A stretch of DNA of 64,000 nucleotides from a virus. The notes below the pieces were generated by a model that was not told where the DNA came from, ran no database searches, and worked only from the letters and a program-made list of their open reading frames with translations. This document shows, in pieces, positions 5,427 through 61,578 of this stretch. Numbering within the stretch: the stretch's first letter is position 1; each line of letters opens with the position of its first letter. The DNA lies in IMG/VR virus record IMGVR_UViG_3300024520_000063, positions 1 through 64,000 of that record, one strand, 5' to 3'. Position numbers and translations under genes: made by a program.

Positions 5427-5813
5427 TTACGTCCTTAGGCCAGCTCCAGTCCAAACGCCATCAGTCATGAATGGCACAGATGCACGCTGGACAGTACCTT
5501 CCCGGTTTCCCGTGAAGTTGAACTGGCCCAGTCGAGCAGTTCCTGTTGCCAGCGTGAGGCCAGTCTGACCCAGAAGAGTCAGCGTGACAAGGTCACCTGT
5601 CTCAGCCAGATCGGCGGCGAGGGCGTCAGCATCAACGACCATATTCATGGTCCCGCTGCCACGTTCTGCCGTGCAGACTGTTTCGGAAGCACCGTCGCCG
5701 CTCACGGCGAAGTACTCTTCGTTCGGGGAGCCGTACGTCAGATCCCAGTCGGTCACGGCAACCATTGTGCAACTGCCGATGGTCATGTAGCCTTGCTTAC
5801 CAGAAAGGGCCAT
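5427..5813 (-). CDS. putative tail component (possible small major tail protein)
   Basis: 128-aa ORF, position upstream of chaperone-like ORFs and TMP. Confidence 0.4.
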   Translation of the reverse strand: MALSGKQGYMTIGSCTMVAVTDWDLTYGSPNEEYFAVSGDGASETVCTAERGSGTMNMVVDADALAADLAETGDLVTLTLLGQTGLTLATGTARLGQFNFTGNREGTVQRASVPFMTDGVWTGAGLRT

Positions 5814-5834
5814 GTTTCTCTCTCCTTGAGATTA

Positions 5835-6284
5835 CTAAGCCGGAGTCGTCCGGGCTTTCTTCCACATTAGGGTAAAGTCAACGTACCCAGCATAGACATT
5901 CTTGTCTGGAAGCTTGTACGCCTCACGTCCTTCGAACCGAACATCAATCACATCACCTTCTGAAATGACCAATGGATTGGTTCCGGCCCGGTCAGAATCG
6001 TTGATATTTGACTCAATAGTATCGAGGAATCCTTCCAGCGCAACTAGATCAGTATGCCAGACTTTGAAGCGGACCTCGGTTATTCTGATGCTGTACTCGA
6101 CTGCATCTTCATAGACGGTGTCAGGCCCCAGTCCATACTCGGCTCGGGGCATGTCTTTGTTGGCATCTGATTCTGGCGTGGAGTCCGCCCCCATCAGGCC
6201 CCAGTTTCCCCGATAGAGCTTAGCTATCGAAGTGTCCAGGCTGGCGTCATTCCATCGGTCGTAGATGCCCTTGCCGAGTGGCAT
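5835..6284 (-). CDS. hypothetical virion protein
   Basis: 149-aa ORF in structural operon. Confidence 0.5.
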   Translation of the reverse strand: MPLGKGIYDRWNDASLDTSIAKLYRGNWGLMGADSTPESDANKDMPRAEYGLGPDTVYEDAVEYSIRITEVRFKVWHTDLVALEGFLDTIESNINDSDRAGTNPLVISEGDVIDVRFEGREAYKLPDKNVYAGYVDFTLMWKKARTTPA

Positions 6285-6904
6285 TAGTTGATATTCCCCC
6301 TAAAGAGAAGTCTGCGGACAATCCACTCTGTCTCTTCGAAGACCGCGTCGTCGATACCTTTGCGAGCCGGAATCTCAAACGACTTACTTGTGAGGATGTA
6401 GTGAAGCTCGCTTTCGTTTTCGCCAGTTCCGAGAAAGATCCCAAATGGAGCACTGTACTTCTTCCCGCCCCCATCCTTCTGGTTCATCCTTCGTATGATT
6501 CGAACCCCAGGAAAACTCCGAGCCGAGTTACCGTCACTAGACCACTGCTTGGCAGCCCAGCTGTATGGAATTGCCAGGTATTTTCCATTCTTCGGACTGA
6601 TTCGCCTCACATTTGAAACTAGCTTTTCCCGAGCCGCAAATGGCCCGGTCGTAGAGATTCTGATCGCAAAGGGGTTAATTCTTTTGACTTGAACAGACTC
6701 TCTCAGGTGTCCCTGGACTCGGGTGGGATGCTCTCCGCCCACGCTGTAGCGCGTCCGAGCAGATTTGCTCCACTTCTTTCGAATGCGGTGTTGCAGTCCC
6801 TTCCGGATTTCCTCGATCCGACTCTTGAGCACATTCTCCAACCTGAGCGAAAACTCTCCGCCCGTGTTTTTGATTGTGACAGTTTGTCGGCCTCTCTTAG
6901 CCAT
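6284..6904 (-). CDS. hypothetical virion protein
   Basis: ORF 6284..6955; likely start at internal Met (MAKRGRQ). Confidence 0.45.
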   Translation of the reverse strand: MAKRGRQTVTIKNTGGEFSLRLENVLKSRIEEIRKGLQHRIRKKWSKSARTRYSVGGEHPTRVQGHLRESVQVKRINPFAIRISTTGPFAAREKLVSNVRRISPKNGKYLAIPYSWAAKQWSSDGNSARSFPGVRIIRRMNQKDGGGKKYSAPFGIFLGTGENESELHYILTSKSFEIPARKGIDDAVFEETEWIVRRLLFRGNIN

Positions 6905-7229
6905 CGATTCTCCCAGAGCGTATCTCAAGATCCTTATCAGCCAGAGTGTCCTCAAGGGACTCTCGGATTGTCAGATACTCATCAGTCCCGTCAGTGACAT
7001 ACTGATCGTTCCGGCCACAGTGGACCAGAAGCTCATAAACGTCGTCTCCAGTCACGAAGGTGCTGCTCAGATAGACGTCTGTGGACGTCTCGTCGATCGC
7101 TTCCAGTAATCCAATCCTGACGACCCCGCCCAAGACAAGGCTTTTTCCATCAGGGGGGTCGTTGATTCGGTCCAGTTCGTCAATGAATTCTTCCGTGCTG
7201 TTGAATGAGATGTTCATCGTTTGATCCAT
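6897..7229 (-). CDS. hypothetical head-tail joining protein
   Basis: 110-aa ORF, operon context. Confidence 0.45.
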   Translation of the reverse strand: MDQTMNISFNSTEEFIDELDRINDPPDGKSLVLGGVVRIGLLEAIDETSTDVYLSSTFVTGDDVYELLVHCGRNDQYVTDGTDEYLTIRESLEDTLADKDLEIRSGRIDG

Positions 7230-35592: not shown

Positions 35593-35794
35593 AAGCACGA
35601 GGTGTGACCGAAAATCATGTTTGTGGGAACAGAGTGCCGGTCGTCCCTGTCATTGAGGGAACGCAAACGCAATGTTCGCAGGTCAATAACAGACCGCATT
35701 GCTGCGACCGGCACGGATCCGCAGGTTTGCCGGACCCCTGCGGTGTCAGCTTGATACTCTCATTTGAGAGGGATCCAATTCCGGCTCATTTTAA

Positions 35795-35870
35795 CCCTCA
35801 TGGGAACGGAGGCGATGCCGTTCCCCTTAATCCCTCATGGGAACCAGGCGATGGTTCCCCAATCAGGAGA
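35795..35870 (+). promoter_or_regulatory. two motif copies each followed by hairpin (GGGAACGG/CCGTTCCC and GGGAACC/GGTTCCC) plus RBS
   Basis: direct reading. Confidence 0.6.
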
Positions 35871-37739: not shown

Positions 37740-37870
37740 CGGAACAGTCGACGTCCTTCGCGAGAGCATGTGTAGGATAGGTGGGAGGTGAAGATGCCAG
37801 GCCGCAAGACCTGTCTGAACCGTCCTTGAAATACCACCCGTGCTCTTTCCCTTAAATCAGGAAAACAGTC

Positions 37871-39363: not shown

Positions 39364-40461
39364 ATGGATAAGATTCAAGAAATGACACCTGAGCAAGAAC
39401 AGCAAATGGTTGAGTTCAGGGAAGAGTACCTTCAGATTGGACTGTCTACCGAACCCGCCAACAGAGAACTGGCAGAACAGGCCATTCAGTCAATCAGATC
39501 CAAGGCCCACAAGGAGTGCTCATCCTTCATGTGGTTCGACGGGATAGCGACAGCAGAATTATTCTTAAATATCGGGGCCAATCTCTGGGACAATCTCGGG
39601 GACAATCTCTGGGCCAATCTTAGTGACAATCTCGGGGCCAATCTCGGGGACAATCTCTGGGCCAATCTCAGGGCCAATCTCAGGGCCAATCTCTGGGCCA
39701 ATCTCGGGGACACTCTCTGGGCCAATCTTAGTGACAATCTCGGGGACAATCTCTGGGACAATCTCGGGTCCAATCTCGGGGCCAATCTCAGGGACAATCT
39801 CAGGGACAATCTCGGGTCCAATCTCGGGGCCAATCTCAGATTACACAGTCAGCTCGAAGGGCAAATGGAGTATTGGATTGCGTGGTACATGTTTCCTCAT
39901 AAATTCCTGAGGAACATTCATTCGGATTCCGACATGGAACATTTGAATGAGTGGGACTCAGTATTCCGATCGTGCTGCTGGTGGTGGCCATACGAAAACA
40001 CCACAATTGTTGCCGAAAGGCCCGCCTCGATCGTCAGAAACGAAGAGGGATTGCTGCATAATGAATCTGGACCTGCAATCTCGTGGCGAGATGGTTGGGA
40101 ACACTTTGCCTTGGAAGGCGTTAATCTGGATCGTCAAATCGTCATGGCTCCTGAGTCTCAATCGGTACAACAATTGGAATCAGAAGAAAACGAAGAGGTG
40201 CGTAGAATCAGAATCGAGCGATTTGGGGTTCTGCGGTATCTGGAAGAGTCTAACTCATCAGTCGTAGATACTCGTCGCAACGACATCGAAGCCACTTTTG
40301 AAATACTGGCCAATACGCCAAATGGCCAGCGATTAGTCACACACTGTCCCTCTACGGGAAGGCGTTATTTCCTTTCTATCCCAGAGCAGGTCGAAACCTG
40401 CGAACAGGCACAAGCTGTCCTGTGGGATGATCACGACATGAGAATTATAGGGAGAACGTAA
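39364..40461 (+). CDS. tetrapeptide-repeat protein (about 22 x [AD]NL[WGRS])
   Basis: 365-aa ORF with RBS aaaggagacaagtcATG; central 12-bp tandem repeats translate to ANLWDNLGDNLWANLS... Confidence 0.6.
   Translation: MDKIQEMTPEQEQQMVEFREEYLQIGLSTEPANRELAEQAIQSIRSKAHKECSSFMWFDGIATAELFLNIGANLWDNLGDNLWANLSDNLGANLGDNLWANLRANLRANLWANLGDTLWANLSDNLGDNLWDNLGSNLGANLRDNLRDNLGSNLGANLRLHSQLEGQMEYWIAWYMFPHKFLRNIHSDSDMEHLNEWDSVFRSCCWWWPYENTTIVAERPASIVRNEEGLLHNESGPAISWRDGWEHFALEGVNLDRQIVMAPESQSVQQLESEENEEVRRIRIERFGVLRYLEESNSSVVDTRRNDIEATFEILANTPNGQRLVTHCPSTGRRYFLSIPEQVETCEQAQAVLWDDHDMRIIGRT
39577..39839 (+). repeat. 12-bp tandem repeat array (consensus GMCAATCTCKGG), about 22 units
   Basis: direct reading. 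Confidence 0.9.
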
Positions 40462-40880
40462 TGCTAATCTCAGAAGCCGTCTCAGAACTTCGCAAATCAT
40501 CCGAATCGATCGACAGCAGTCAGCCAGTTCAGATTCCGGAAGTCATGTCTCCCGGAGAGGGATATCCGCAAGGGGATATCGTCCTGAAGATGATCGAGGC
40601 GCTCCCAAGTAGTGCGGTACAAGTGCCATGGGAACACGGAGATAGGCAAATTGCCCCCGGCACGTCTCGCGGTTCACGTCACTGTATTCCAAGCAGGTTC
40701 CAGGGATACGTGCGATTCTTCTCCATCAATGACGGAAATCCACTCTCCGATCTTGTAATCACAGCAGAAGTGCCCTTCGATCTGGTTCATCCGGAACACG
40801 CCGACCATGTTGGGTATCCGCCAGGAATTTACCGGGTCAAGCATCAGCAGAACGCTCAGCGGGAACGAGTACTGGATTAA
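40461..40880 (+). CDS. hypothetical protein
   Basis: 139 aa, ATGA-type overlap with upstream stop. Confidence 0.45.
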   Translation: MLISEAVSELRKSSESIDSSQPVQIPEVMSPGEGYPQGDIVLKMIEALPSSAVQVPWEHGDRQIAPGTSRGSRHCIPSRFQGYVRFFSINDGNPLSDLVITAEVPFDLVHPEHADHVGYPPGIYRVKHQQNAQRERVLD

Positions 40881-41722: not shown

Positions 41723-42136
41723 TCGCCACCCGTCACGTATCCTGAGATTGTCTCCCTTGTGGTGCGTGGCGGGATTTTAATACCTCGCGTCAGCAATACG
41801 GTTGCCATGCACCGGTAAATGTGTGGCCGTCAAGCAGAAGGAGAGCGATATGACCTGTTATCACAATCACAATCTCTAACACAGGCAGAACGCCGCGTGT
41901 GGGAAAGCCCCACGGTCCCTGCCGGGTACTGTCATACTCGGAGAGCGGAGCACTACTTCACCGGACAGGGTGCGAGTAGGAGTCCAAGCGACTCAGTGAA
42001 AGCTGCTGGTGCAATTCCAGCCATGGGACTTCAGCCCGGATCAGTAGTTGCAGATTCAACGAAGCACAACACGCAAGCGTGAATCCACTACTGATTCGGG
42101 CTGTTTTTGTTTCTTCACCTCAGAAAGGAGTCTGTG

Positions 42137-42316
42137 ATGCTCGTACTCAGTAGAAAGCCAAATGAACAGATCGTGATTGCGGATGGCGAAATCGTGATCA
42201 CGCTACTTGAAATCAGAAAAGGATCAGTCAGACTGGGGATCGAAGCACCTCGTGATATCCCGGTTCACAGGCGAGAGGTGCAGACAATCATTGAATCTGA
42301 GGAGAAGGTGGCATGA
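42137..42316 (+). CDS. csrA: carbon storage regulator CsrA/RsmA homolog
   Basis: MLVLSRKPNEQIVIADGEIVITLLEIRKGSVRLGIEAPRDIPVHRREV aligns residue-by-residue with CsrA ([47 protein letters not shown]); RBS aaaggag. Confidence 0.85.
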   Translation: MLVLSRKPNEQIVIADGEIVITLLEIRKGSVRLGIEAPRDIPVHRREVQTIIESEEKVA

Positions 42317-45699: not shown

Positions 45700-46890
45700 G
45701 TGCTACACGAAATTATTCCTGCGACCCCGCGATTAGTCGAAAAGCTTGTAGCGAGAGAGAGGGATCCCGCAAGAACAGATCCACTACTGTGGGAAAAATC
45801 AGAAGACACTGAGATGTATATAGAAATAGCATCTCGCGAGACGGCCAAGCTGGTTTCCAGCGTAGATGTCATGCAGAGGAAAATCAGGGCGTTAAACGCA
45901 ACACAGAAGCCATCTTTCGGGAAAGCTCTAAGAGATTCTGCATATACTGCCTATAACGACGCAAAGCATCAATTGGATGAGGCTTACTACAACCTAACCT
46001 CGTTCAATATACCCGAACGTCGCAGCAGCCCGGTCGCTCGGACCAACAACACCAAGAAGATTTCGTATCTGAGCAACTCCGACTTCATAGAGCAGGAAAA
46101 GGTGATGATACACCGCTCATATAAGACGGTGTTCATCACAACAGAACCAATCGTAATCGAAAACATCAACCTTGGTGCTTTTGAGATTCATGTCAGGCCA
46201 CGTGTTGACTCGACAGCAGAGGCATACGCACTCAACCCCAACCCGGCAATCAGCAATCCAGTCGTTACCCACCCGAATGTGAAGAATAACACTGTCTGCC
46301 TGGGCGAAGGTAAAGATGCATACAACAAGGCCGTTATGGAAGGGCGTCTTTGCGATGCACTGCAAATTGCCTTATCCGTCGTGAGAAATTACGGGTGGAG
46401 AAATCCCTACCTGTCTATTAGCGAATGGTTTGGAGTCAACTGTGGATTCTGTGGCCACTTGAATACACCAAATAGAACATTTCAGTGCATCGACTGCAAA
46501 GTAAAGGGATGCAAAACCTGCGCTTACACAGGGACTGCTCGAAGATGCTACGAGTGCCATGAGTACAGGCTGGCCAATCCTCCAGACGAGTGCTACAGGT
46601 GCAGTCGAGAGGCTCATAATGAATGCCCGGACTGCAAGAAGAAAGTCTGCGGGAGATGCTGGATCGAAGATTCCTGCAATCTCTGCTATCGCAGAAACAA
46701 TCAAGCCTGCAACAGGTGCGAGCGTGTCACCCGGATAGACACGTGGCCAGATCCGTGTGCTGGATGTGAGGTACGTTTATGTGCTCTATGTATGGAGCAC
46801 GGAGTTTTGTGTCCTACGTGCTATCAGGGTCACCTCAATGAGAACCCGGATGTGGCACGACTTATTGGGAGTCTGCGAGATGACGACTAA
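45700..46890 (+). CDS. E2 (UBC)-like ubiquitin-conjugating domain protein with C-terminal Cys-rich zinc-ribbon array
   Basis: GTG start after RBS aggagac; VTHPNVKNNTVCLGEG matches E2 HPN(I/V)xxxGx(I/V)C active-site signature; C-terminal half has >20 Cys in CxxC pairs. Confidence 0.55.
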   Translation: MLHEIIPATPRLVEKLVARERDPARTDPLLWEKSEDTEMYIEIASRETAKLVSSVDVMQRKIRALNATQKPSFGKALRDSAYTAYNDAKHQLDEAYYNLTSFNIPERRSSPVARTNNTKKISYLSNSDFIEQEKVMIHRSYKTVFITTEPIVIENINLGAFEIHVRPRVDSTAEAYALNPNPAISNPVVTHPNVKNNTVCLGEGKDAYNKAVMEGRLCDALQIALSVVRNYGWRNPYLSISEWFGVNCGFCGHLNTPNRTFQCIDCKVKGCKTCAYTGTARRCYECHEYRLANPPDECYRCSREAHNECPDCKKKVCGRCWIEDSCNLCYRRNNQACNRCERVTRIDTWPDPCAGCEVRLCALCMEHGVLCPTCYQGHLNENPDVARLIGSLRDDD

Positions 46891-48013
46891 CAACAAACCT
46901 GTGTTCTCTCCGTCTGCATGGCAGAAATACATTCTGCTTCGAGACATGGGGGGCACTGAGATTTCCGCGATGGCGATCTGCTTTGACCCCGACGAACCGC
47001 TGAAAATCAACGATCTCTACGTGCCCGAGCAAACATGCAGCTCGGCCTACACTGAGTTCGATGACGACGCCTTGAGTGAGCTGTACGAGATGTATGGCCC
47101 GCAGATCGACCCGGATGACGACACCAAGCTCACCGGTCTGCATCCTTATCAGTTCAGCCGCATCTGGCTGCACACTCACCCAGGTCAGAGCGCAAAGCCT
47201 TCAGGGACCGACCACACCACATTCAAGGAGCGGTTCGGGCCTCCAGACTGGGCAGTTATGTTCATTCTGGCACGTGGGGGACAAACCCATTGCGAGCTTA
47301 AGGTTCGCAGTGAATCCGGTCTTGTTAACGCTCATGTCAGGCACGATTCCAGTGAGTGGGTCGACTGGAGCATGCCGTGCGTTCCGGTGAATCATGATGA
47401 ATTGAAGGAAATCTACAAGAAGAAAGTAAAAACCAGCCACGCGGCGGTGTCTTACGGCGGTGCGTGGAATGGCGGACACTCCTACACCACTCGTGGGGGC
47501 AAGCCAGGATACTACGCCAATGGAAAGTGGACCGAGTATGGGACTCAAGGGAAGTCCAACCAGACCGGCACAAAGAAGATTGAAGTTAACCAAAGAAACC
47601 AGAGAGAGCCACTCGACTTTGGCGACCTGGAATGGAGATACAAGCGTGAAGACCACTTCATGAAGCAGTATCTCCAGGATGTTTACGTGGACATCAAGAC
47701 ATGGGGAAATGCTGCCGACGTCATGAAGAGAGATGACTTTGAAGAAGTTTGGGCTCCGGACGACCAGGACTTCGCAATGTGGATGGACCAGAAGTGGCTC
47801 ATGGGTCGAGATTGCAAAATCGAATTCATCGACGAGAGCGAAGATGGAGAAGAGACCATATGGGAATGCTCTGCCCAGGAAGCGCAGATGCTTGTCCAGA
47901 AGAAAGTCATCGAGGACACGGACTTCGGAGAGTTTTTCGGTGCAGACAAAAAGGATGACGAAGACGATGAGGAATTGGATTTCTCTTTCCCTGGTCTGCA
48001 CATGTGGCAGTAA
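46880..48013 (+). CDS. JAB/MPN+ (JAMM) metallopeptidase domain protein
   Basis: IWLHTHPGQSAKPSGTDHTTF = HxHx7Sx2D JAMM motif with upstream Glu; overlaps upstream stop by 11 nt. Confidence 0.65.
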   Translation: MTTNNKPVFSPSAWQKYILLRDMGGTEISAMAICFDPDEPLKINDLYVPEQTCSSAYTEFDDDALSELYEMYGPQIDPDDDTKLTGLHPYQFSRIWLHTHPGQSAKPSGTDHTTFKERFGPPDWAVMFILARGGQTHCELKVRSESGLVNAHVRHDSSEWVDWSMPCVPVNHDELKEIYKKKVKTSHAAVSYGGAWNGGHSYTTRGGKPGYYANGKWTEYGTQGKSNQTGTKKIEVNQRNQREPLDFGDLEWRYKREDHFMKQYLQDVYVDIKTWGNAADVMKRDDFEEVWAPDDQDFAMWMDQKWLMGRDCKIEFIDESEDGEETIWECSAQEAQMLVQKKVIEDTDFGEFFGADKKDDEDDEELDFSFPGLHMWQ

Positions 48014-48058
48014 GGCTGGCTGTAACCGCTTAATGTTTCTCTAACGGAGGTGGAAGGT

Positions 48059-48913
48059 ATGCCGTCACTTAACAGGTTTTCTCGACAGGAGAGTATTGTC
48101 CCGGTTGAGAAGAAGACTCCGGTGACAATCATCGGGGTCGGAGCTATTGGACTTCAGCTCGCGAAGTTCATGGCCTCAATGGGAATCCCTCAAATCAGGT
48201 TGATCGACTTTGATGTAGTCGAAGATACCAACATCACTACGCAGGGATACACCGGATCGCAGCTGGGATTGCCCAAGGTGGAAGCCGCAAGGGATTCCAT
48301 CCATGCCATCGACGCGGACATCAAGGTCATCGCAGAAAATGACCGATGGAGACCGAAAACCAAGATTGATGGGGTCGTGTTCTGCTGCGTCGACTCGATC
48401 AAGGCTCGCGAGTGCATCTGGAAAGGCATCAAGAATAAGGTGGATTTCTTCTGTGATGCCAGAATGCTCGGTGAGGTCTTCCATGTGTACGCATGGATCA
48501 AAGGTGCCCCTCACGAAGACTACGAGCAGACGCTGTTCGCAGAAGAAGAGACGATCGCAGGCCAGTGTACCGCAGCAGGTACGATCTACTGTGCTGGCAT
48601 GGCCGCAGGTGCCATGTGTCACCAGTACACGCGATGGATCAGGGGTGTTCTGCCTCCCGATGTGAGCTGGTCCTGTGCTTTGCTGTCCAGCGAGCTTTCA
48701 GTCATCTCACGGGACTTCGTTGCTCCGCCAGAGGATACTGGAATGCTGGTCAAGGAAGTAATCGTCGAGAAGCCAGAAGAGGTTGCGACTCCTGTGGAAG
48801 AAGAGGCAGAAGAAGCCTCAGCTGAACCAGAACCGGTGCCCGCTCTGGCGGACCCTGTGGACGACTATGACGATGATGACTGGGACAGAGAACGAGAAGA
48901 GGACCGCTGGTAA
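48059..48913 (+). CDS. E1-like (ThiF/MoeB family) activating enzyme
   Basis: VTIIGVGAIGLQLAKFMASMGIPQIRLIDFDVVEDTNITTQ matches ThiF/MoeB Rossmann GxGxxG ... D.D.VE.SNL.RQ block; RBS ggaggtgg; followed by terminator. Confidence 0.7.
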   Translation: MPSLNRFSRQESIVPVEKKTPVTIIGVGAIGLQLAKFMASMGIPQIRLIDFDVVEDTNITTQGYTGSQLGLPKVEAARDSIHAIDADIKVIAENDRWRPKTKIDGVVFCCVDSIKARECIWKGIKNKVDFFCDARMLGEVFHVYAWIKGAPHEDYEQTLFAEEETIAGQCTAAGTIYCAGMAAGAMCHQYTRWIRGVLPPDVSWSCALLSSELSVISRDFVAPPEDTGMLVKEVIVEKPEEVATPVEEEAEEASAEPEPVPALADPVDDYDDDDWDREREEDRW

Positions 48914-54601: not shown

Positions 54602-55498
54602 ATGTCGCAGACTGACCAGACAGAACTTTGTAACGTGATCATGGAGCACTGCCGAGTCAGGAATGCTTTCCTGAAGAGCAAGAATGCCATCATCAACAGA
54701 ACAGCATCCAGCATTGCAACGGTGATTGGATATCACTCCGGCATGGAAGAGGTCGATCGGAAAAAGCAATACAACGCGGCCCGAGATTTCGTAGTGAAGC
54801 GTATCGCTGGCAAGGAAGCCCAGATGGATGGCGAACTCAGCGATCGACAGCGACTCGCAATCGAGGCTCTTGTTGGTGGTGTCATGGGAAGTGCCCAGGC
54901 CTTCACCGAACAGGAGAACGTCTATAAGAAAGAGCTGACGAAGCTGGGCAGGCAGCTGGAAATCTGGGAGAGATGGGCCAAGGATGTCCGAGGTATCTCT
55001 GAGTTCGGACTGTCTGTCGTCGTAGGGGAAATCGGAAATCTGGACAACTATCCGAACCCAGCCAAGGTCTGGAAGCGGATGGGATGTGCCCCCTATGAGA
55101 AGAACGGGGAAACCAAGGCCCCGAGTACGTGGCGGTCCAAGGGCGGACTTAAGAGCGAAGACTGGGAAATCCTTGGATACAGCCCGAGACGCCGCAGCGT
55201 GATCTACAACCTGGCAGCGTCCATCATTAAGGCGAATCCCAAGGACTCAGGGTCGGAGTTCAGGGCAAGATACGACGAAGCCAAAGAGCTGGGCTTGGAG
55301 AAACACCCTGATTGGAGCTTGGGCCACGCACACAACCACGGGATGCTGCTGTGTGGGAAGAGGTTCCTGAGGGAATTGTGGATCAACTGGACAGAACCGG
55401 ATTCCGAATTGTCACCGATATCCGAAGTTTCAGAACCGGTTGTCACCACAACAGAGAGGGTTCCATTTGCGATCACCGAAGAGTTGAGCTTGAAGTAG
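54602..55498 (+). CDS. HhH protein resembling C-terminal domain of IS110-family transposases (no DEDD domain)
   Basis: ISEFGLSVVVGEIGNLDNYPNPAKVWKRMGCAPYEKNGETKAPSTWRSKGGLKSEDWEILGYSPRRRSVIYNLAASIIK resembles Transposase_20 helix-hairpin-helix region. Confidence 0.35.
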   Translation: MSQTDQTELCNVIMEHCRVRNAFLKSKNAIINRTASSIATVIGYHSGMEEVDRKKQYNAARDFVVKRIAGKEAQMDGELSDRQRLAIEALVGGVMGSAQAFTEQENVYKKELTKLGRQLEIWERWAKDVRGISEFGLSVVVGEIGNLDNYPNPAKVWKRMGCAPYEKNGETKAPSTWRSKGGLKSEDWEILGYSPRRRSVIYNLAASIIKANPKDSGSEFRARYDEAKELGLEKHPDWSLGHAHNHGMLLCGKRFLRELWINWTEPDSELSPISEVSEPVVTTTERVPFAITEELSLK

Positions 55499-61096: not shown

Positions 61097-61423
61097 CGAA
61101 AGGCCCGCGTAGTGTTAATCAACACGCAAGTCTCTAAAACTTGAAATCTGGGTTAAAGTCCCAGCGCGGGCAATCAATTACCGACCCGGACCCTGTTGCC
61201 GAATAATGCCGTGTCTCGACCGACTGCGCCCGTGTAACCGAAAAAAGCCCTTACCTTCCGCGTAGAAGAATGCCACCGAGGGAACACTTACCGGAAAGCT
61301 CACCGTAACCGATCGCTACTGTTTTTCTCTTGACTAATCAGGATTCTCAAATAGGCTTTCATCTGCCGACCCTCAGGGGAACTTGGACTGGCCCGGTCTT
61401 GTGACTCTGGGGTGTCGGCTTTT

Positions 61424-61502: not shown

Positions 61503-61578
61503 GAAGAGGTGGTGTAGCGGAAACACGCCGTCGTGATCGATCAGGGCGGAACCCGAGGTTCAAATCCTCGTCCCTTCA
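61503..61578 (+). tRNA. second tRNA-like element
   Basis: acceptor GAAGAGG/TCCCTTC (one mismatch), D-arm GTGT-AGCGGAA-ACAC, T-arm CGAGG-TTCAAAT-CCTCG; anticodon region has 12-nt loop so noncanonical. Confidence 0.3.

Follow-up and report, generated by a model that had tools for sequence, protein, structure and literature searches.

What is the role of a long run of four-residue repeats in the middle of a phage protein? The question is raised by a gene at positions 39364-40461 of the IMG/VR virus record IMGVR_UViG_3300024520_000063, of which positions 1 to 64,000 were analyzed (this whole 64,000-nucleotide stretch is termed the window). The product of the gene is a non-structural phage protein that belongs to the DUF6745 family, and in it two conserved globular parts (N-terminal, ~67 residues; C-terminal, ~205 residues) are separated by a homogenized array of four-residue units. 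Each unit combines a fixed two-residue core (N-L in the window) with two adjacent variable residues. The length of the array shifts by in-frame gain or loss of units between near-identical phages, and the DUF6745 gene almost always is paired with a small gene of the phrog_27831 family. The explanation favored here, tentatively and at somewhat less than an even chance, is that the array is a tunable stalk on a base made up of the N- and C-terminal parts, with a diversifying surface that is retuned by unit recombination against a host or prophage target. The elements of the gene are as follows.

39364-40461, + strand: repeat gene, ATG start, 365 aa
39352-39356, + strand: Shine-Dalgarno sequence AGGAG, 7 nt before the ATG, read from the sequence
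39364-39564, + strand: N-terminal domain, aa 1-67, with the pattern TPEQE..FR..Y/W...GLST.P ... [DS]-P anchor
39565-39840, + strand: tetrapeptide array, aa 68-159, comprising a degenerate LNIG unit (39565-39576) and then 22 units
39841-40461, + strand: C-terminal globular domain, aa 160-365, including the stop codon
39931-40416, + strand: Pfam DUF6745 match inside the C-terminal domain, aa 190-351

The array unit has the form GMC-AAT-CTC-NGG and is translated as [A/D]-N-L-[R/G/W], with a few serine and threonine residues, in 22 in-register copies from 39577 to 39840. Units 1-11 read ANLW DNLG DNLW ANLS DNLG ANLG DNLW ANLR ANLR ANLW ANLG, and units 12-22 read DTLW ANLS DNLG DNLW DNLG SNLG ANLR DNLR DNLR SNLG ANLR. 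Tandem Repeats Finder reported a period of 12, 22.5 copies, 83% matches and 0% indels at 39568-39837 (score 330). The two-unit pattern AATCTCNGGGMCAATCTC, with at most two mismatches, occurs 22 times compared to 0.03 expected by chance; all of the occurrences are within 39568-39837 and none is elsewhere in the 64-kb window. A preliminary description of the locus had placed about 22 units of 12 bp at 39577-39839, which is right to within one base or one unit, and its remark that a protein repeat of period four is unusual was upheld. The description also had treated the tract as coding. In more than 398 homologs, the array and the conserved N- and C-terminal domains share one frame, which validates the reading frame of 39364-40461, and the open reading frames (ORFs) in another frame (39623-39910, + strand) and on the other strand (39486-39833, - strand) are by-products of the repeat.

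The positions at which the units differ are not spread evenly. In the window array, the units deviate from their consensus 31 times, and 23 of these deviations are at nucleotides 2 and 10 (binomial P = 2.5e-12), which are the second base of codon 1 and the first base of codon 4, respectively. Pairwise diversity is 0.52 at nucleotide 2 and 0.69 at nucleotide 10 compared to a mean of 0.107 at third codon positions, and the contrast between third positions and replacement sites has P = 1.5e-7 in the window alone. In seven independent arrays built from unrelated DNA units, nucleotides 2, 10 or 11 accounted for 188 of 218 differences and the four third positions for only 20. The set of residues at position 4 tracks codon context (NGG gives R/G/W, NGC gives R/C/S/G and NRC gives R/D/Y/G), which suggests that variability itself, rather than a given chemistry, is retained. 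Position 4 and position 1 of the next unit vary independently of each other and, as they are adjacent, each unit can be viewed as a fixed N-L followed by a variable di-residue. Neither a super-period nor hairpin mirror complementarity was detected in the order of the variable residues, which shows only a mild avoidance of identical neighbors (0.72-0.88). Homogenized DNA with invariant silent sites and two polymorphic replacement sites is not the outcome expected of neutral slippage. Instead, the pattern points to selection that favors diversity at two residues of each unit, both probably exposed.

The preliminary description had suggested that the tract could vary in length, and this was borne out in near-identical phage genomes, three sister pairs of which differ by 4, 8, and 4 units. 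Contig L002 derives from another sample and aligns with the window in three BLAST segments spanning ~21 kb, at identities of 99.4-99.98%. Its array is shorter by exactly 48 bp (4 units) and its protein (P0121) is 349 aa. The segment that it lacks is:

39591-39638, + strand: 48 bp, ANLSDNLGANLGDNLW, missing in L002, with placement ambiguous inside the repeat

Contigs L021 and L022 come from other samples and were produced with a different assembler. Over 9.1 kb they share 99.93% identity, and the single indel there, of 96 bp (8 units), is in the array. The L025 and L026 contigs have a 4-unit array difference and total lengths that differ by exactly 48 bp. All array indels are multiples of 12 bp, and the frame always is kept. 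Across the family there is no preference for array lengths modulo 2 or 4 units, and the three indels in multiples of four units therefore are ascribed to recombination between the longest identical stretches of DNA. No near-identical DNA to that of the window was found in cultured phages, and exact scans of metagenome and viral collections with the left flank gave no match.

The remainder of the protein places it in a large family. The Pfam DUF6745 model (PF20530) matched with 89.3 bits compared to a cut-off of 27 (E = 2.7e-25), and the C-terminal domain also matched phrog_31813, for which function is not annotated. PF20530 is present in all 120 homologs among the matches listed, more than 398 having been found. 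An exhaustive HMMER scan with the C-terminal domain alone recovered 7,513 clusters at 50% identity; the search for related loci used a six-sequence alignment of this domain and samples the subclade of the query only. Residues I4, T8, Q11, G26, Y45, P53, and P61 of the N-terminal domain are nearly invariant in 70 aligned homologs, and a hidden Markov model of the domain matched 223 of 264 family proteins. When modeled with AlphaFold2 (AF2) from the 70-sequence alignment, the protein had a predicted template modeling score (pTM) of 0.73 and a predicted local distance difference test (pLDDT) value of ~95 for residues 1-70 and 171-350, with values of 87-98 over the N-terminal domain. The flanks thus are globular, as the preliminary description had supposed. 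No structural relative of the globular part was found among solved structures, no NCBIfam family matched the repeat protein, and no paper was found in searches of the literature for "DUF6745" or "PF20530." The domain occurs in only 2 of 50,697 deposited phage genomes. A cultured member is gp38 of Mycobacterium phage prophiGD102-1, which has ~55 units of [G/D]-Q-L-[R/G/W]. Other members are located on phage contigs from many environments and on a contig of a Thermosynechococcus metagenome-assembled genome, as well as in the prophage of Mycobacterium abscessus.

Copy number in the array ranges from 4 to ~70 units with a median of 24-29 in the 120 homologs from a word-index search, among the matches listed. 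Homolog P0082 has a short array of ~4 units. In the same set, position 2 is Asn in 96% of units, position 3 is Leu in 96%, position 1 is Asp or Ala (Asp in 40%), and position 4 is Arg, Gly, or Trp. Other members have alternative cores (SV, SL, QV, QL, AV) in an unchanged layout. Proteins with NL, SV, or QL cores have last 90 residues that visibly are very similar, and the C-terminal domains of these relatives are 55-59% identical to that of the query. The combination of similar C-terminal domains with different cores indicates that arrays undergo homogenization inside a gene and replacement from one gene to the next. Only 22 of 118 full-length representatives in an unbiased sample have a clear array (at least 8 units). 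The linker between the two domains is 11-20 aa in array-less representatives compared to 97 aa in the window protein, and is ~85 aa and non-repetitive in a Streptomyces homolog. In view of the short linkers in array-less relatives, the array is considered to be an expansion inside the inter-domain linker.

The second gene of the module follows directly.

40461-40880, + strand: partner gene, 139 aa, phrog_27831; its start codon shares 1 nt with the stop codon of the repeat gene (TAATG)

The partner protein of the window carries the motifs PQGD, QLAPGTSRGSRH, HPEH, and Q..R..D, all of which are invariant, and the family as a whole is characterized by QGD, G..G.xH, H(P/E)EH, and QR..R.V.D. The conserved His and Glu residues suggest a candidate metal site. 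In 17 of 18 loci a partner homolog directly adjoins the DUF6745 gene on one side or the other, including those of the Mycobacterium prophage prophiGD102-1 (gp37/gp38; MW584211.1, 16158-17991) and an array-less locus on a Streptomyces plasmid. When the search was made from the partner side, a DUF6745 repeat gene was located immediately downstream in all five places examined. The partner family has >3,800 members, none of which is named or has a Pfam domain. The structure model of the partner is confident and beta-rich, and no structural match to it was found. The assignment to DUF6745, the partner gene, the two-residue variation within each unit, and the precedent discussed next all go beyond the preliminary description.

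Tetrapeptide arrays have been described previously in mycobacteriophages, and Tweety gp54 is the closest precedent. Tweety, Che8, and PMC have 48, 26, and 15 units, respectively, of A-A-[G/W/Q]-[S/Y] (Pham et al., 2007; PMC2884959). In Tweety gp54, Che8 gp57, and PMC gp51, the termini on either side of the array are conserved, and the third codon positions of the 12-bp unit that encodes it do not vary, a pattern which the authors regarded as "consistent with selection for variation" (PMC2884959). The function of gp54 is taken from two reviews from the same laboratory that summarize Dedrick et al. (2017): according to these reviews, Tweety mutants that escape the Phrann gp29/gp30 and MichelleMyBell prophage defenses map to gene 54 and have more or fewer repeats, which "tunes" the counter-defense (PMC9262239; PMC8549241). 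The mechanism of this counter-defense "remains obscure" (PMC8549241). Among the proteins compared here, Tweety gp54 is the only one for which counter-defense is experimental.

The window protein and gp54 share unique N- and C-terminal regions that surround a tetrapeptide array with a 12-bp unit. In the units of both proteins, two residues are invariant and two vary, with Gly or Trp at the first variable residue in gp54 as in the window array. Both genes are non-structural and located in the early region, and copy number varies between related phages in both cases. As a control, Tweety gene 54 produced the same entropy signature, with invariant third positions and variation at first and second codon positions. 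In contrast, gp54 has an A-A core compared to the polar-aliphatic N-L core in the window, and its C-terminal part is just ~45 aa. Judged by sequence, the window protein resembles gp54 in repeat logic and lies outside the gp54 family.

The tunable stalk that is favored here would operate as follows. The N- and C-terminal parts together would form one base, which might act in concert with the partner protein: array-less relatives join the two by 11-20 residues, from which a single base is deduced and the array is viewed as an extensible excursion from it. Contact between the two domains likewise is predicted from the pTM of 0.73 in combination with these short linkers. The array would project from the base as an extensible stalk, probably antiparallel, in which the core residues might build the scaffold and the variable pair might provide a surface on which selection maintains diversity. 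The 12-bp units would recombine or slip, and both the length of the stalk and its surface thereby would be retuned against a fast-evolving target. By analogy with Tweety gp54, the target most likely would be a defense component encoded by the host or a prophage, and the partner protein, rich in His and Glu, may provide or modulate the biochemical activity. We infer the fold of the array, the contact between the N- and C-terminal parts, the target, and whether the module acts in counter-defense or in defense.

A number of points weigh against this explanation. Tweety gp54 does not match DUF6745, and its comparison with the window protein gave an hhalign probability of 0.13% and BLASTP E > 5. 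The two proteins are not detectably homologous and the analogy between them is one of repeat logic only. No gene of the phrog_27831 type is annotated or recognized by Pfam beside gene 54, although no direct test for one was made. The literature holds no functional datum for any DUF6745 protein. The array-less module also occurs in Actinobacteria outside an obvious phage context, and the core function thus need not be counter-defense. The AF2 model of the array is a two-helix hairpin with pLDDT of just 52-69, and the low values weaken the case for a helix. The content of Asn, Gly, and Asp, which make up ~36% of array residues and are poor for helices, and hydrophobicity that repeats every 4.0 residues instead of every 3.6, degenerate linkers included, also argue against it. 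All of the length variants are short-read assemblies, which can mis-size repeats of at least 270 bp, and L025 and L026 may be one data set. Finally, the PADLOC defense models matched the module only within the repeat, to the HsdS subunit of Type I systems; the N- and C-terminal parts and the partner were without match.

The HsdS match merits comment as it involves another protein with tetrapeptide repeats. The NL-type array alone matched PADLOC model PDLC03131 (Type I specificity subunit) with 31 bits (E = 3.6e-8) over the central positions 156-223 of 439, and the QL-type array of prophiGD102-1 did not match this model. The match was judged to be periodic or low-complexity: it could stem from a periodic helical spacer that some HsdS proteins have, or from composition. 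The HsdS proteins of EcoR124I and EcoR124II (type IC) have TAEL tetrapeptide repeats in the central coiled-coil, a long antiparallel helical spacer, and unequal crossing-over alters the copy number of TAEL and re-tunes specificity. The window array is similar in its 12-bp, four-residue unit and in its PADLOC match, but this match is confined to the repeat and to the NL dialect, and the array has 22 units compared to 2-3 in HsdS. Identity with a Type I HsdS was rejected as the window N- and C-terminal parts have no match and there are no target-recognition domains.

In a more far-reaching reading, the array would be a new programmable recognition module with a period-4 scaffold and one variable di-residue every four residues. 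Recombination of units would let phages of many phyla rewrite the module and follow changing targets, a small metal-binding protein would be its dedicated partner, and gp54 would be a convergent minor example. We regard this reading as unlikely. Transcription activator-like (TAL) effector arrays offer a parallel in that their units are near-identical in DNA including synonymous sites, have two adjacent variable residues per unit, and are reshuffled by recombination. In contrast, TAL-effector units are 34 aa, and have a known helical fold and a DNA code, whereas there is no evidence of nucleic acid binding or of a code for the window array. Phage genes with variation in repeat number or targeted diversification also are known from bbp36 VR2 of Bordetella phages BPP-1/BMP-1 and from diversity-generating retroelements (DGRs) (PMC2884959). 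The bbp36 VR2 unit is 24 bp, and DGRs need a template repeat and make adenine-specific changes. Targeting of the window array by a DGR was rejected: the adenines of the AAT codon are invariant and the window contains no second copy of the unit, although no search was aimed at reverse transcriptase.

Among the alternatives, the two-gene module might be a defense or exclusion system, or a pair akin to a toxin and antitoxin, carried by phages, prophages, and plasmids, in which the array would be a sensor surface that recognizes the proteins of competing phages and the partner would be the effector. The module is present in a prophage, on a Streptomyces plasmid by IS110 elements, and near integrases; sensor surfaces of immune proteins typically diversify; and the conserved His/Glu motifs of the partner suggest an enzyme. 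However, the PADLOC models recognize neither the non-repeat parts nor the partner, and the module in the window, in prophiGD102-1, and in L016 or L021 is located in co-directional early or replication blocks and not at the positions of morons expressed in lysogeny. Moreover, the sole experimental precedent for the repeat logic is a counter-defense protein. A defense role is viewed as improbable.

Alternatively, the array could be a neutral, slippage-driven expansion of a flexible linker, a low-complexity spacer in which the regularities arise from mutation and tolerance and not from selection for variability. This explanation accommodates the absence of an array in 81% of the unbiased family representatives, the range from 4 to ~70 units in which a preferred length class is absent, and the nearly random order of the variable residues. 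However, it predicts synonymous variability that at least equals replacement variability, whereas 20 and 188 differences, respectively, were found (P = 1.5e-7 in the window alone). The layout of core and variable residues recurs despite unrelated DNA units, the core residues are 96% conserved, and the frame always is preserved. A purely neutral origin is judged to be quite unlikely.

The preliminary description had raised a further possibility, namely that the repeat could form a regular solenoid with a DNA-mimic surface, analogous to pentapeptide-repeat proteins that protect against restriction enzymes or topoisomerase poisons. Pentapeptide-repeat proteins, including Qnr, MfpA, and AlbG, have the consensus A(D/N)LXX and fold as a right-handed quadrilateral beta-helix that mimics DNA. 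The window array resembles them in its short tandem units with a central Leu after Asn or Asp and variable trailing residues, such that A-N-L-x is the consensus minus one residue. In addition, hydropathy alternates with period 2 inside the unit and the whole protein is acidic (pI 4.6). In contrast, the array has period 4, not 5, and is close to neutral, with a net charge of -5 over 92 residues and a family median of -0.03 per residue. An Ocr/ArdA-like DNA mimic was rejected for the same reason, as the dense negative surface of such a mimic is lacking. The Pfam pentapeptide models PF00805, PF13599, and PF13576 did not match the repeat protein even at E ≤ 1. Position 1, which in a beta-helix would have to be filled by a small and buried residue, is Asp in 40% of units. 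A beta-helix coil of four units also was considered: there is neither lag-4 autocorrelation nor a four-unit super-period in the array order, and the modulo-4 length preference that would mark a preferred number of units per super-repeat is absent. AF2, which is good at pentapeptide proteins, produced the low-confidence helical hairpin and no beta-helix. The pentapeptide analogy thus did not hold up, and a solenoid of this type that acts as a protective DNA mimic is very unlikely.

The weakest alternative, in which the 12-bp array would act as DNA, be it as iterons, as an origin, as a recombination hot spot, or as an array to which proteins bind, with an incidental peptide repeat, draws on the near-perfect DNA identity that includes synonymous sites, on the replication/early location, three genes after a RepA-like initiator in prophiGD102-1, and on the precedent of the lambda ori inside gene O, but is extremely improbable as the unit DNA is wholly different among relatives (GCCAATCTCGGG, GGCCAGCTCCGC, GCCAGCGTTGGG, GACAACGTCGGG, and others) despite conservation of the protein layout, frame, and flanking domains, the indels all are multiples of 12 bp, and 22 to 70 head-to-tail 12-mers are unlike known sets of iterons.

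The window is the genome of a tailed phage with genes for a major head protein, a portal protein, and a DNA methyltransferase, and no close cultured relative was found. The module is located among early, replication, and accessory genes. A CsrA homolog (74.8 bits; 42107-42316, + strand) is encoded a few genes downstream and recurs near the module in other phages (L021, 6695-6898; L027, 1-163). Within ~8 kb of the DUF6745 gene, the window also encodes an E1-like ThiF protein with a weak Prok-JAB match (46757-48913, + strand), and a full Prok-E2/JAB/ThiF cluster is situated within ~8 kb of the DUF6745 gene in L015 (622-3156). These are phage ubiquitin-like conjugation genes. Viral contig L005 has two copies of the module (1185-2739 and 5764-7034), each a DUF6745-like gene followed by an ORF of the partner family. 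On the Streptomyces cadmiisoli plasmid NZ_CP030074.1 (L018, 378784-385350), the array-less DUF6745 gene and its partner adjoin an STM4012-STM4015 cluster (a radical SAM protein, a hydrolase, and two family proteins) and IS110 transposases.

Other features of the window are more distant from the module. An 84-nt intergenic element (37763-37846, + strand) matches positions 2129-2212 of the bacterial 23S rRNA model with 51.5-57.6 bits (E ~1e-14) and intact stems. These positions are, we take it, the L1 stalk (H76-78). The element, which was not found in 13 related loci, is a free-standing mimic of the L1 stalk in the phage early region. It may offer ribosomal protein uL1 a binding site or a decoy, or may be regulatory. 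The sister contigs L001 (1287-1653) and L002 (6070-6436) contain ~368 bases more than the window, with a 117-aa ORF. The insert is flanked by two copies of a ~49-bp sequence that is single in the window (35791-35860), and the difference is a gene-sized indel bounded by direct repeats. Two tRNA genes are present (61103-61172 and 61503-61578, + strand), one of which has a CTA anticodon of the amber-suppressor type (designated Pyl by ARAGORN), whereas the other is weaker with an unusual ATC anticodon. A phage suppressor tRNA can indicate stop-codon reassignment or host manipulation. An ORF at 54602-55498 (+ strand) has a weak match to IS110/IS116/IS902-family transposases (22.6 bits).

Tweety gp54 has been the only phage tetrapeptide-repeat protein with a demonstrated role. 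The same repeat logic, with a fixed core, a hypervariable adjacent pair, homogenized DNA, and length polymorphism, now is seen in an unrelated and far larger family of ~7,500 clusters at 50% identity, which offers a general class of candidate tunable arms-race factors. The gp37/gp38 pair of the M. abscessus prophage prophiGD102-1 provides a cultured and tractable example. The tunable stalk constitutes a first working hypothesis for both DUF6745 and phrog_27831, and the fold of the period-4 repeat potentially is new. If the array indeed is a recognition module, the "tunable repeat" strategy would be widespread, as DUF6745 comprises thousands of clusters.

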